DNA of 64,000 bases, taken from an uncultured Actinomycetota bacterium. Its GTDB lineage: Bacteria > Actinomycetota > Actinomycetes > JACCUZ01. A model generated the notes under the pieces. That model was not told where the DNA came from. It was given only the letters and a program-made list of their open reading frames with translations, and did not search any database. Below are positions 45,474 to 55,928 of this stretch, piece by piece. Both the position numbers and the translations under genes were made by a program. The stretch spans positions 3,021,556 through 3,085,555 of the forward strand of contig CAWCFV010000002.1 of the NCBI GenBank assembly GCA_963794995.1, in the 5' to 3' direction. Position 1 is the stretch's first letter. Every line of letters begins with the position of its first letter.

Positions 45474-45659
45474 GCCCACCCCCCGGCCTCGGTATGACCG
45501 TCCCTTGACTCTTCGACGCCCCGCCCCCGGGGGAGCACCGCCACCCGGGTGAACCTGGGCGGGGCGGTCGGGGCCGTCGGGGTCGTCGGGGCCGCTGGGG
45601 CGACGGAGCCCGTCCGCCGGGGTCGCCCTCCCGTCATGCGAGACGGCCCGTGCCACTGG

Positions 45660-45688
45660 TTGACACGGCGGGGGCACCGGGCGAGGCT
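45660..45688 (+). promoter_or_regulatory. probable sigma-70-type promoter for the ilvB leader
   Basis: TTGACA at 45660-45665, a 17-nt spacer, and GAGGCT at 45683-45688. The predicted start site falls on the leader GTG at 45695. Confidence 0.5.
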
Positions 45689-45694
45689 GTCCGC

Positions 45695-45733
45695 GTGCGT
45701 CTCCTCGTCGTACTTCGCGTGCGCGCCGCCTGA
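45695..45733 (+). CDS. ilvL: ilvB attenuator leader peptide (V/M)[11 protein letters not shown]
   Basis: GTG CGT CTC CTC GTC GTA CTT CGC GTG CGC GCC GCC TGA: a run of Leu/Val codons followed by a terminator. Confidence 0.8.
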
Positions 45734-45755
45734 CGAACCGTCAGCCGAGCGCGCG

Positions 45756-45797
45756 ACCCCTCGCTGTCCGATCACCGGGCCGGAGGGGTTTTTTGTT
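45756..45797 (+). terminator. attenuator intrinsic terminator before ilvB
   Basis: ACCCCTC...GAGGGGT stem followed by TTTTTTGTT. Confidence 0.85.
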
Positions 45798-45830
45798 GGC
45801 CGCCACCCGTCCCACCCGAGAGGTCTCGCG

Positions 45831-47636
45831 ATGTCCGAGCAGGTCAGCCAGCAGGTGACAGGCGCGCAGAGCATCGTCCGGTCGCTGGAGGCGGCCGGCG
45901 TCGACACCGTCTTCGGCATCCCGGGCGGCGCCATCCTCCCGCTCTACGACCCGCTGATGGACTCCTCCCGGATCCGGCACATCCTGGTCCGGCACGAGCA
46001 GGGCGCCGGGCACGCCGCCACCGGCTACGCGCAGGCGACCGGGCGGGTCGGTGTGTGCATGGCCACCAGCGGGCCCGGTGCCACCAACCTCGTGACGCCG
46101 ATCGCCGACGCGTACATGGACAGCGTCCCGATGGTGGCCGTGACCGGCCAGGTGCCCAGCGCGGCGATCGGCACCGACGCCTTCCAGGAGGCGGACATCC
46201 GCGGCATCACGATGCCGATCACCAAGCACAACTACCTCGTCACCGACCCGGCCGACATCCCGCGCACGATCGCCGAGGCCTTCCACATCGCCTCGACCGG
46301 CCGGCCGGGGCCGGTGCTGGTGGACATCGCCAAGGACGCCATGCAGGCGGCCACGACCTTCACCTGGCCGACGTCGATCGACCTGCCGGGCTACCGGCCG
46401 GTCGCCCGGCCGCACGGCAAGCAGGTGCGGGAGGCCGCGCGGTTGATCGTGGCCTCGCGCCGGCCGGTGCTCTACGTGGGGGGTGGGGTGCTCAAGGCCC
46501 GCGCCTGGGCCGAGCTGCGCGTCCTCGCCGAGCTCACCGGGATCCCGGTCGTCACGACCCTGATGGCCCGCGGCGCCTTCCCGGACAGCCACCGCCAGCA
46601 CCTCGGCATGCCGGGTATGCACGGCACGGTCGCCGCGGTCACGGCGCTGCAGAAGTCCGACCTCATCATCAGCCTCGGTGCCCGCTTCGACGACCGCGTC
46701 ACCGGGAAGCTGTCCAGCTTCGCGCCGGACGCCATGGTCGTCCACGCCGACATCGACCCGGCGGAGATCTCGAAGAACCGGCTGGCCGACGTCCCGATCG
46801 TGGGTGACGCCCGCGAGGTCATCGCCGACCTCACGGTCGCGGTCAAGGGCGAGAACGACGCCGGCAACCACGGCGACTACGCGGCCTGGTGGGCCCAGGT
46901 CGACCGGTGGCGTACGACCTACCCGCTCGGCTACGAGAAGCCGGTCGACGGCTCGCTCGCACCCCAGTACGTCATCGAGCGGCTCGGCGCGATCGCCGGT
47001 CCGGACGCGCTCTACGTGGCCGGTGTCGGCCAGCACCAGATGTGGGCCGCGCAGTTCATCGGCTACGAGAACCCCGGCACCTGGCTCAACTCCGGCGGCC
47101 TCGGCACGATGGGCTACGCCGTACCGGCCGCGATGGGAGCGAAGGCCGGCCGCCCCGAGGCGACCGTCTGGGCGATCGACGGCGACGGATGCTTCCAGAT
47201 GACCAACCAGGAGCTCGCGACCTGTGCGATCAACGACATCCCCATCAAGGTGGCCATCATCAACAACGGCAGCCTCGGGATGGTCCGGCAGTGGCAGACG
47301 CTGTTCTACAACGAGCGCTACTCCAACACCGACCTGGGCGGGGCCGGCCGCAACGCCGCACGAGCCGGGTCCCGGGTCGAGCACATCCCGGACTTCGTGA
47401 AGCTCGCCGACGCCTACGGCTGCGTCGGGCTGCGGTGCGAGAAGGCCGAGGACGTCGACGCGACCATCGACCGCGCGATGTCGATCGACGACCGCCCGGT
47501 CGTGGTCGACTTCACCGTGCACCAGGACGCCATGGTCTGGCCGATGGTGCCAGCCGGCACGAGCAACGACCAGATCCAGGTGGCCCGCGACATGGCGCCG
47601 CAGTGGGACACCGAGGCGGGGGAGACGCGCCAGTGA
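45831..47636 (+). CDS. ilvB: acetolactate synthase large subunit
   Basis: [44 protein letters not shown] and [10 protein letters not shown]. Confidence 0.97.
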
Positions 47637-53556: not shown

Positions 53557-53967
53557 ATGAGCTCGCCCGACCCGGACAGCAGCACCGCGCCCCTGGAGAC
53601 CGCAGCCGTGATCGCCGCCGGCATGGCCGCCGGTGACACCGAGGCCGTCATGCGCGCCGTGGCGTCCGCCGAGGTCGTCGTCCCGCAGGCAGCCGGGTCC
53701 GACGGCGCCCCCGACGGATCGATCTCGCTCCCGGTCATCGAGCAGGACGGCACGTCCTACGTCCCGGTGTTCACCTCGCAGGCCGCGATGGCCGACGCGG
53801 CACCGGACATCGACGACGCCGTGACGGTGAACGCTGCCGAGCTGGCCGCGAGCTGGCCGGGCGAGGACCTCTGGCTGGCCGTCGACCCCGGCACCGAGGA
53901 CGGCCTCACCCTGCCGCCCGACGCCGTCCGCGCCCTCCCCGGCTACGTCGCCCCACCCCCCGCCTGA
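53557..53967 (+). CDS. SseB family protein
   Basis: AEVVVP, LPVIEQDGTSYVPVFTS and WLAVDPG, the pattern of the SseB N-terminal domain. Confidence 0.7.
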   Translation: MSSPDPDSSTAPLETAAVIAAGMAAGDTEAVMRAVASAEVVVPQAAGSDGAPDGSISLPVIEQDGTSYVPVFTSQAAMADAAPDIDDAVTVNAAELAASWPGEDLWLAVDPGTEDGLTLPPDAVRALPGYVAPPPA

Positions 53968-53992
53968 CCCACCCCCCACCCCCCGCCGCTCG

Positions 53993-54082
53993 GATTCGAC
54001 CACGTGAGGTAGGCCAGGGCACACGGCAACAGGCGTCGACGCCTGTTGCCGTGTGCCTCCACCTACCTCACGTGGTCGAATC
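53993..54082. repeat. two-tier palindrome (21-bp outer stem, 4x4 internal loop, 40-bp perfect central palindrome)
   Basis: 53993-54013 pairs with 54062-54082, and 54018-54037 pairs with 54038-54057. Both are perfect. Confidence 0.9.
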
Positions 54083-54169
54083 GCAGATGCGGGGTGCTGG
54101 TGGGGGGGTGACCAGGGGGTGAGACGGCGGTTCCGGAGGGTGGGCGCGGTGGGGCACTCTGGTCCGGAC

Positions 54170-54199
54170 ATGCGCACCACCGTCTGCATTACCAGCTGA
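54170..54199 (+). CDS. cimA attenuator leader peptide MRTTVCITS
   Basis: ATG CGC ACC ACC GTC TGC ATT ACC AGC TGA: three Thr, one Ile and one Val codon, followed by a terminator. Confidence 0.7.
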   Translation: MRTTVCITS

Positions 54200-54241
54200 G
54201 CGCGCCCGCCGGCGCTGCGACCCCGCACCCGGCCGACGCGC

Positions 54242-54275
54242 AGACCTCCCGCGACCGCGGGGGGTCTTTTTGTTT
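54242..54275 (+). terminator. attenuator intrinsic terminator before cimA
   Basis: AGACCTCCCGCG...CGCGGGGGGTCT stem followed by TTTTGTTT, ending 13 nt before the cimA ATG. Confidence 0.8.
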
Positions 54276-54287
54276 GCGGGAGACCCG

Positions 54288-55928
54288 ATGAGCAACACCG
54301 CCGGCAGCTCGCCGGAGCGACCACTGGCCGTCGACGACGCGTTCCACGTCTACGACACGACGCTGCGCGACGGCGCCCAGCAGGAGGGCCTCGCGTTCTC
54401 CGTCGAGGACAAGCTGGCGGTCGCCGGGCACCTGGACGAGCTCGGGGTCGGCTTCATCGAGGGGGGCTGGCCCGGCGCCAACCCCAAGGACACGGAGTTC
54501 TTCCGGCGCGCTGCGACCCAGCTCGACCTGAAGCACGCGCAGCTCGCCGCGTTCGGCGCGACCCGCCGACCCGGTGCGAAGGCCGCCGACGATCCCCAGG
54601 TGGCCGCCCTGCGTGACTCCGGGGCGGGGGTGGTGACGCTGGTCGCCAAGAGCCACGCCCGCCACGTCGAGCTCGCCCTGCGGACCACCCTCGAGGAGAA
54701 CCTCGCGATGGTCGGTGACTCGGTGACGCACCTGCGCGCCGAGGGGCAGCGGGTGTTCCTCGACGCCGAGCACTTCTTCGACGGGTACGCCGCCGACCCG
54801 GCGTACGCGCTGGAGGTGCTGCGCGTCGCGGTCGAGGCCGGCGCCGACGTGGCCGTCCTGTGCGACACCAACGGCGGCCGGCTGCCCGACGAGGTCGCGG
54901 AGGTCGTGCACGCCGTGCGCCAGGCGACCAGCGCGCGGCTCGGGATCCACTGCCACAACGACGCCGGCTGCGCGGTGGCCAACTCGCTGGCCGCGGTCGA
55001 GGCCGGCGCCACCCACGTGCAGGGCACCCTGAACGGGTACGGCGAGCGCACGGGCAATGCCGACATCCTCACGGTCATCGCCAACCTCGAGCTCAAGCGG
55101 TCGCGGCAGGTGCTTCCCGACGGCCGGCTGCGGGAGGCGACCCGGGTCGCGCACGCCGTGTCCGAGCTGGCGAACGTCCCGCCCTACAGCCGGGCGCCCT
55201 ACGTCGGGACCTCGGCGTTCGCGCACAAGGCCGGCCTGCACGCCAGCGCCGTCCGCGTGGACCCGATGCTCTACCAGCACGAGCAGCCCGGCAGCGTCGG
55301 CAACGACATGCGGATGCTGGTGTCGGACATGGCCGGTCGCGCGAGCATCGAGCTGAAGGGCCGCGAGCTGGGCTACGACCTCGCGGGGAACGACGAGCTG
55401 CTGGGCAGGGTCACCGCGAAGGTCAAGGATCTGGAGGCCAAGGGCTACACGTTCGAGGCCGCGGACGCGTCGTTCGAGCTGCTGCTGCGCGCCGAGGTCG
55501 ACCAGGGCACGGAGGACTTCTTCCGGGTGGAGTCGTGGCGGGTCATCGTCGACGCGCACACCGACGCGCACACCGAGGGCAGCTCGGCCACGGCCGAGGC
55601 CACCGTCAAGGTCTGGGCCGGTGGTGAGCGGGTGGTCGCCGTCGGCGAGGGCAACGGACCGGTGAACGCCCTCGACCACGCGCTGCGGTCCGCGCTGGCA
55701 CCGGCGTACCCCGAGCTCGCCAAGCTGGAGCTCATCGACTACCGGGTGCGCATCGTCGACGCCGCCCACGGCACGGACGCGGTGACGCGGGTGCTGGTCG
55801 AGACCAGCGACGGCGAGACCTCGTGGGAGACCGTCGGCGTCCACGCCAACATCATCGAGGCCTCGTGGGAGGCCCTGCTGGACGCGGTGAACTACGGGCT
55901 GCTCCGGCACCGCCGCGACCACACGTGA
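54288..55928 (+). CDS. cimA: citramalate synthase
   Basis: YDTTLRDGAQQEG, IEGGWPGANPKD, FLDAEHFFDGY, LCDTNGG, IHCHND, GERTGNA, FAHKAGLHASA, GNGPVNALD and DYRVRI. Confidence 0.9.
   Translation: MSNTAGSSPERPLAVDDAFHVYDTTLRDGAQQEGLAFSVEDKLAVAGHLDELGVGFIEGGWPGANPKDTEFFRRAATQLDLKHAQLAAFGATRRPGAKAADDPQVAALRDSGAGVVTLVAKSHARHVELALRTTLEENLAMVGDSVTHLRAEGQRVFLDAEHFFDGYAADPAYALEVLRVAVEAGADVAVLCDTNGGRLPDEVAEVVHAVRQATSARLGIHCHNDAGCAVANSLAAVEAGATHVQGTLNGYGERTGNADILTVIANLELKRSRQVLPDGRLREATRVAHAVSELANVPPYSRAPYVGTSAFAHKAGLHASAVRVDPMLYQHEQPGSVGNDMRMLVSDMAGRASIELKGRELGYDLAGNDELLGRVTAKVKDLEAKGYTFEAADASFELLLRAEVDQGTEDFFRVESWRVIVDAHTDAHTEGSSATAEATVKVWAGGERVVAVGEGNGPVNALDHALRSALAPAYPELAKLELIDYRVRIVDAAHGTDAVTRVLVETSDGETSWETVGVHANIIEASWEALLDAVNYGLLRHRRDHT

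Follow-up and report, generated by a model that had tools for sequence, protein, structure and literature searches.

The closest described counterpart of the element reported here is the leader of ilvB1 (ilvB1NC) in Mycobacterium tuberculosis. SEnd-seq detected there a transcript of ~120 nt that ends in the leader, the upstream open reading frame (uORF) was occupied in ribosome profiling, and a reporter was induced by an IlvB1 inhibitor, an induction abolished when LVVI was changed to AAAA (PMC13236596). In the published model, the ribosome hides an anti-terminator hairpin once it has reached the stop codon and lets this hairpin form when it stalls at the regulatory codons, and the two hairpins of the leader are mutually exclusive (PMC13236596); a 166-nt leader and the transcription start are given, but not the start of the uORF (Eckartt et al. 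2026, PMC13236596). Leaders with terminators upstream of actinobacterial ilvB genes had been described in 2005, when their mode of regulation was called unclear (Seliverstov et al. 2005, PMC1262725), and in older mutational work on the Streptomyces coelicolor ilvB leader, as summarized where that paper cites it, changing putative regulatory codons was without effect. A re-annotation of S. lividans listed eight leader peptides, none of them for cimA, with ilvL given as MRTRILVLGKRVG* (PMC8079986), and for the Corynebacterium ilvB-II motif a base-paired antiterminator was proposed, in which the P1 loop pairs with the 3′ arm of P2 (PMC10272879). These ilvB leaders resemble the element described below in having a short ORF with a leaderless start, which for the cimA element is a prediction, a hairpin and a terminator, and differ from it in their mixed Ile/Leu/Val codons and their position before ilvB; no cimA leader appears in the three reports (PMC1262725, PMC8079986, PMC10272879). 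The citramalate route to isoleucine is widespread and its regulation is little described; our search for literature combining cimA or citramalate synthase with attenuation or leader peptides, with subscription journals outside its scope, returned nothing relevant. As far as the searched literature goes, the probable attenuator described here is undescribed for the cimA gene, and belongs to the known ilvB-type class.

The window, by which we mean the whole stretch of 64,000 nt that was analysed, comes from an uncultured Actinomycetota bacterium (GenBank assembly GCA_963794995.1, contig CAWCFV010000002.1). The leader ORF lies at 54170-54199 on the forward strand, as do all features of the element, and reads ATG CGC ACC ACC GTC TGC ATT ACC AGC TGA, nine codons encoding MRTTVCITS*. 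Its sole Ile codon, ATT (54188-54190), lies 12 nt before the hairpin H1, stands between a Cys and a Thr codon and is proposed to be the main regulatory codon, and threonine is encoded three times, by ACC ACC at codons 3 and 4 (54176-54181) and by a third ACC (54191-54193) directly after the ATT. A -10-like hexamer, CACTCT (54155-54160), is found 9 nt ahead of the leader ATG, the stretch separating them lacks a Shine-Dalgarno sequence, and the transcript is predicted to start at this ATG or a few nucleotides before it, which would make the leader leaderless or nearly so. Directly 3′ of the stop codon begins H1 (54200-54241), the proposed anti-terminator, a hairpin with a GCGCG/CGCGC clamp at its base that was recognized by folding and covariation; the fold containing it had a minimum free energy of -64.2 kcal/mol (z = -2.6 relative to shuffles). 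The end of H1 abuts, within 1 nt, an intrinsic terminator T (54242-54275), the stem of which (54242-54267) consists of AGACCTCCCGCG/ACC/GCGGGGGGTCT with 11 pairs, 8 of them G-C, and is followed by TTTTGTTT up to 54275. A consensus scan found 2 terminator-like sites in 3 kb, compared with 0.5 expected from shuffles. From the last T of the tract (54275) to the cimA ATG (54288) is a distance of 13 nt.

Most of this anatomy had been outlined in the earlier note, which was made from the sequence of the window: the ORF MRTTVCITS*, the GC stem with its U-tract terminator, the 13-nt gap and the CACTCT hexamer were all recovered, and the near-leaderless transcript it had suggested is in keeping with the relatives described below: in 41 of 59 loci the start codon of the leader follows a -10-like G[GCT][CG]AnnnT box at a distance of 6-10 nt, with a gap of 6-7 nt in 27 of these. 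H1, the second strong hairpin, was missing from that description. Searches of Rfam 15, including its T-box, riboswitch and amino-acid leader models, gave no meaningful match at E ≤ 10 on 53900-54400 or 45600-45900, the chance matches being mostly miRNA models that fell on a neighbouring palindrome. The sequencing runs found to contain related sequence were of soil metagenome DNA, with no RNA runs among them. The palindrome itself, an element of ~92 nt with arms of ~40 bp, occupies 53988-54090 between an SseB-like gene and the cimA promoter; BLAST returned at least 12 further copies in the genome at 84-98% identity, and it is apparently a REP- or MITE-type dispersed palindromic repeat, one that may here also serve as a terminator for the transcript of the upstream gene.

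The gene downstream of the element (54288-55928, forward strand; 546 aa) matched the TIGR00977 equivalog of (R)-citramalate synthase at 642.5 bits (curated cut-off 450) and the LeuA models at 89-255 bits, all far under their cut-offs of 517-748; its Pfam domains are HMGL-like and LeuA_dimer, and a Shine-Dalgarno-like GGGAGA, recognized by sequence, is present at 54278-54283. By the curated equivalog model the product is a true citramalate synthase, CimA, and a separate true LeuA is encoded elsewhere in the genome (C2:955899-957563, minus strand; TIGR00970, 866.5 bits, cut-off 697), so that the possibility raised in the earlier note against its own reading, that the enzyme is a LeuA-type synthase, does not apply. 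The genome also encodes a threonine dehydratase, IlvA, of the one-C-terminal-domain form (C2:2596591-2597718; TIGR01127, 441 bits), which makes cimA a second route to isoleucine and means that two routes to 2-oxobutyrate coexist. A search of the genome with PF00585 had returned no IlvA match and was misleading, owing to this domain composition. The ilvA gene itself appears to be leaderless, with a CACACT box 7 nt before its ATG, and neither a leader peptide nor a terminator was seen upstream of it.

To follow the element through the phylum we used a covariance model, R1, built from 20 cimA leaders of relatives with the window left out. R1 matched the window element with 48.3 bits (E = 5e-10) and gave matches in 108 of 401 sampled Actinomycetota genomes and in 36 of 41 relatives, and the element was found upstream of cimA in about 48 of 80 loci encoding CimA relatives. 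The shared unit comprises a -10-like box, a start codon 6-10 nt further on, a short ORF, the GCGCG...CGCGC hairpin and a terminator of the form AGACCTCTCGC...GCGAGGGGTCTTTTTGTT; in loci that lack it, cimA sits directly behind an upstream gene, as in Planktophila and Acidimicrobiia. When the 59 cimA-linked matches were aligned by fitting to R1, a procedure that favours the structure, 97% of cells could pair and 12 of 18 pairs showed double changes, values reached by none of 500 shuffles, with slid controls at ~50% paired. Independent analysis of 20 sequences with MAFFT and RNAalifold returned the same two helices, with double changes at 8 pairs. Within the 59 sequences, 6 of the 8 modelled pairs of T showed double changes, and covariation in H1 lay in its distal half, the GCGCG/CGCGC clamp being invariant; the clamp and an AGACCTC motif are conserved in sequence beyond the needs of pairing. 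An ORF equivalent to the window's leader was present in all 59 relatives, its in-frame stop lying either at the foot of H1 (-2/-3; 33 of 59) or in the H1 loop, past the 5′ arm (+10 to +25; 26 of 59), where the peptides end like ...IIGRRAG*. The linker between H1 and T measured 1 nt in 53 of 59, and the length of H1 varied from 22 to 76 nt across the family, although its spacing from both the Ile codons and the terminator is fixed. The spacings of the window (ATT at -12 and TGA at -3 from H1, a linker of 1 nt) all fall within the family distribution. The comparison of related cimA upstream regions that had been proposed as a check on the earlier note thus yielded a conserved ORF and two covarying hairpins.

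Two groups of loci depart from the usual layout. In Pedococcus and other Intrasporangiaceae-like genomes (L002, L003, L004, L023 and L029), the leader and terminator lie 100-200 nt upstream of cimA across a long spacer, compared with the usual 15-60 nt, and in large genomes of a genus that is probably Streptomyces (g3; L098, L099 and L111) the cimA leader reads M(L/-)..MIIGSRRAGPQ* and H1 spans 71-76 nt. The list of eight leader peptides for S. lividans TK24 has none of the latter type (PMC8079986).

What the leader would sense can be read from its codons. In the 59 cimA leaders the conserved signal is Ile-Ile or Ile-Ile-Ile, not Thr, with Ile codons at -14, -11 and -8 from the first paired base of H1 and with ATT in 56 of 59, a codon that makes up 0.3% of the Ile codons in the window's genome (73.7% G+C). 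The earlier note had proposed a Thr/Ile-sensing attenuator; its leader-peptide attenuator in front of a true citramalate synthase stands, and its threonine component gives way, for the family, to Ile-Ile(-Ile). All R1 matches away from cimA precede ilvB and encode mixed Leu/Val/Ile. The leader residues are I-I(-I) before cimA, L/V/I before ilvB and LLLL before leuA. The window holds one such ilvB leader (element 45695-45798), in which a leaderless ORF running from a GTG at 45695 to a TGA at 45733 contains GTA and CTT, rare codons that account for 1.1% of Val and 1.0% of Leu codons, respectively, and is followed by a hairpin with a GCGCGC clamp, a terminator and then ilvB at 45831, an architecture the same as that of the cimA leader; ilvC, serA, leuB and ilvE lie downstream of ilvB, after an ORF-sized gap that presumably holds ilvN. 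That the leader residue tracks the product of the downstream gene, together with the choice of rare codons, argues strongly for translation-based sensing. If this reading is correct, a conserved Ile-specific attenuator would mean that actinobacteria control the citramalate route through charged tRNA, in parallel with the L/V/I leader of ilvB and the Leu leader of leuA in the same genome.

Taken with the layout of the M. tuberculosis leader, these features suggest how the element may work. Mycobacterium-like ilvB leaders (M..LVVIG.RVG..) carry a clamp hairpin of the GCGCG type with the terminator immediately next to it, and R1 recognizes them with E of about 1e-3, which places the tested M. tuberculosis element and the cimA leader in one architecture. 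Both have a short ORF with rare codons (LVVI, with GTA and ATT, in M. tuberculosis) just upstream of a GC-clamped hairpin abutting a terminator, and a stop codon at or inside the 5′ arm of this hairpin; they differ in that the M. tuberculosis leader controls ilvB1NC and senses Leu, Val and Ile rather than Ile. Peptide endings of the type ...G(K/R)RVG* recur because the ORF reads through the common clamp sequence. We consider it likely that the element is a ribosome-mediated transcription attenuator of cimA, within a widespread actinobacterial class that also controls ilvB, and as to its signal, a response to Ile, in an attenuator of the actinobacterial ilvB type, is very probable. With ample charged Ile-tRNA, the ribosome would reach the stop codon and its leading edge would cover the 5′ arm of H1, so that H1 would be blocked, T would form and transcription would stop before cimA. 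When Ile-tRNA is scarce, the ribosome would stall with the rare ATT in its A site, 12 nt before H1, which would allow H1 to form, reduce termination at T and let cimA be transcribed. The direction of regulation and the role of H1 in this scheme are carried over by analogy from the M. tuberculosis ilvB1 attenuator. Counted from the first base of the codon in the A site, a ribosome protects the next ~11-12 nt, and RNA can remain structured from ~+9. By these standard footprint figures, a ribosome at -14 to -8 leaves H1 essentially intact and, once it has advanced by two codons to the stop, covers most of the 5′ arm of H1; in this geometry the spacings of the leader fit the M. tuberculosis ilvB1 model.

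The step from H1 to T is less easily accounted for. Attenuators of the trp, his and ilv type combine a short ORF, an intrinsic terminator and bases shared between antiterminator and terminator; the first two are present here and the shared bases are not. Minimum-energy folds of the free RNA contained both H1 and T under every ribosome mask tried, so that RNA thermodynamics alone predicts constitutive termination, and no base-paired antiterminator displaced T in any of them; masked folds in which the 3′ arm of T was forbidden likewise gave no antiterminator above background. Across the 59 sequences, the duplex energies of the three cross-pairings examined (H1 3′ arm with T 5′ arm, H1 5′ arm with T 5′ arm, and H1 loop/3′ arm with T 3′ arm) were no better than those of composition-matched shuffles, with mean z values of +0.1 to +0.5 and z < -2 in at most 2%. 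Our folding of the alternative structures thus agrees with the earlier observation that only short candidate antiterminator pairings can be found, in that nothing strong emerged. Two specific candidates were rejected: a recurrent mini-hairpin GCAG/ACCU/CU-C-GC reaches only about -2 kcal/mol and fails where the T arm ends in CAC, and a mimic of the T 5′ arm in the H1 loop (GACCCC or GACCUCC), which could capture the 3′ arm and is visible by eye in some loci, was not significant overall (mean z of +0.13 for the loop plus H1 3′ arm against the T 3′ arm). Pairing of the kind proposed for Corynebacterium ilvB-II, between the P1 loop and the P2 3′ arm, is accordingly unsupported in the 59 cimA leaders.

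These results bear directly on two other explanations. A classical four-segment attenuator, in which the stalled ribosome frees a segment that pairs with one arm of T as in trp, his and ilvGMEDA, would account for the textbook layout of leader peptide and terminator, and pairings of 4-6 bp can be drawn that join the 3′ strand of the H1 clamp to the T 5′ arm; since, across the 59 sequences, shuffles give cross-pairings at least as strong, a T arm ending in CAC, as found in some lineages, breaks the drawn pairings, and T is kept in the minimum-energy fold under all masks, we regard this design as improbable. It is more improbable still, to the point of being hardly credible, that the ORF is incidental and that H1 and T together form a protein- or ligand-binding RNA, a tandem-hairpin terminator or a short RNA with a function of its own. 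The conservation of the GCGCG clamp and AGACCTC beyond pairing needs could be read in this way, and small RNAs derived from attenuators and acting in trans have been reported from other bacteria (PMC6614838). Such a view is at odds with a reading frame that is kept and that ends with in-frame stops at two alternative places, with a start codon fixed relative to the -10 box, with codon identity that follows the downstream gene (Ile for cimA, L/V/I for ilvB, Leu for leuA), with a choice of rare codons that is sensible only if the ORF is translated, and with the lack of an Rfam match.

For the attenuator reading favoured here, the mechanistic puzzle is that the class has two abutting hairpins which do not compete for bases and that its M. 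tuberculosis member is nevertheless regulated, the published model treating the two hairpins as mutually exclusive and the relatives read here having them adjacent and non-overlapping. Because H1 and T share no bases, we infer that the action of H1 has to be steric. Placed against the base of T and with the stalled ribosome at its own foot, H1 would prevent the lowest pairs of T from closing in the RNA exit channel of the polymerase: the T stem has to enter this channel with its 5′ end, and that end would be tethered, across no more than 1 nt, to a rigid clamp helix with the ribosome on its other strand. The invariant clamp, the fixed linker of 0-1 nt and the weak A-U/G-C/A-U base of T fit such an idea and are no proof of it; the mechanism follows from reasoned geometry, and neither our computations nor the searched literature yielded support for it. 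Steric blocking by a hairpin without shared bases would be a mechanism not yet described for attenuators. The natural variants of the family, with spacings fixed and hairpin length free, offer a ready design for testing it.

The window's own leader departs from the family signal. We recovered 20 further leaders of the same family (21 with the window), all of the form ...x-I-[T/S/I]-x*, among them MRTTLCITS, MCTTLCITS, MSTTRCITS, MTTARCITS, MASTCITT, MTSCITT, MSYRLITH and MSATYVITH; three members differ (MSIAIITP, MNVSIISP and MSVLGIIPAAR). In the CimA tree the window falls in a clade of 17 rows from 17 genera (support 100/96), all with x-I-T-x, and its sister groups have II or III, which indicates that the single-Ile state is old and stable rather than a recent decay; H1, T and the ATT are intact throughout the clade. 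The codon after the Ile, at the position of the last Ile codon in other clades, encodes Thr in 17 of 17 rows (ACG; ACC in the window). With one Ile codon, the window leader may be a weak Ile sensor, and the clade, which combines one rare Ile codon with a conserved Thr, constitutes a natural experiment on the evolution of sensor specificity.

The nearest precedent for a leader that combines Thr and Ile is E. coli thrL, which, like ilvL of ilvGMEDA, is a multivalent leader peptide; as Ile derives from Thr, thrL carries codons for both, 8 for Thr and 4 for Ile. Both E. coli leaders differ from the cimA leader in having a four-segment RNA with an overlapping antiterminator and many regulatory codons, in not being leaderless, as the cimA leader is predicted to be, and in controlling the threonine or the common branched-chain pathway instead of the citramalate route. 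Had the window's clade been retuned in a comparable manner, a shortage of Thr-tRNA would induce cimA as much as one of Ile-tRNA and would spare threonine from the IlvA route, so that the leader would, hypothetically, sense the substrate of the alternative pathway. Several observations are in keeping with this: Thr outnumbers every other residue in the 21 family leaders (46 of 161, 29%, compared with 6.3% in the ORFs of the genome), it is retained after the ATT in every row of the clade while neighbouring positions vary, and the presence of IlvA provides the two coexisting routes to 2-oxobutyrate. There is, moreover, no upstream segment with which the leader could pair, so by geometry a stall at any leader codon upstream of H1 should free H1 and give read-through, and on this ground the leader probably also responds to Thr-tRNA shortage. 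Selection for that response is another matter. The Thr codons are ACC and ACG, the common ones of the genome (62% and 35% of its Thr codons), whereas the regulatory Ile, Val and Leu codons of the class are rare and A/U-ending. In II/III cimA leaders, too, Thr is the most frequent residue ahead of the Ile run (19%), and by eye, without a tally, it looks common in ilvB leaders, where sensing of Thr would have no special logic, a pattern that points to an N-terminal bias shared by leaderless ORFs in general. IlvA scored above its cut-off in 30 of 38 genomes regardless of leader type, which led us to reject a link between the C-I-T type and the presence of IlvA, and the conserved TGC (Cys) beside the ATT has no metabolic logic, so that conservation of TGCATTACG may have another cause. 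We therefore rate a dual Thr/Ile sensor as possible but doubtful, and give threonine sensing as a selected function the same tentative standing; judged from codon choice, Ile is the codon still marked out as the sensor in the window's clade. The most far-reaching combination appears unlikely: that throughout the class, including the cimA and M. tuberculosis ilvB1 leaders, an abutting, non-overlapping hairpin blocks termination sterically only when a stalled ribosome is present, and that the window's clade has in addition been retuned from Ile-Ile-Ile to Cys-Ile-Thr, also reading the supply of threonine, the precursor of the competing route.

Leaders of this kind are unannotated and absent from Rfam. 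Upstream of the leuA gene of the genome lies a leaderless uORF, MRLGLLLLGCRGEALS*, that includes the rare codon CTT and resembles the S. lividans LeuL1 peptide; no obvious T-tract terminator was seen in this leader. A motif reading ATGnTGAGAC or ATGCGGAC, often followed by GGTTCC, occurs in the window at 54116-54135 and 45635-45646 and upstream of the leuA leader (C2 about 957,7xx). For the cimA leader it precedes the -10 box by ~28 nt, and for the ilvB leader it comes immediately before the -35 box; it recurs in many related loci and may be the site of a regulator common to branched-chain amino-acid genes.
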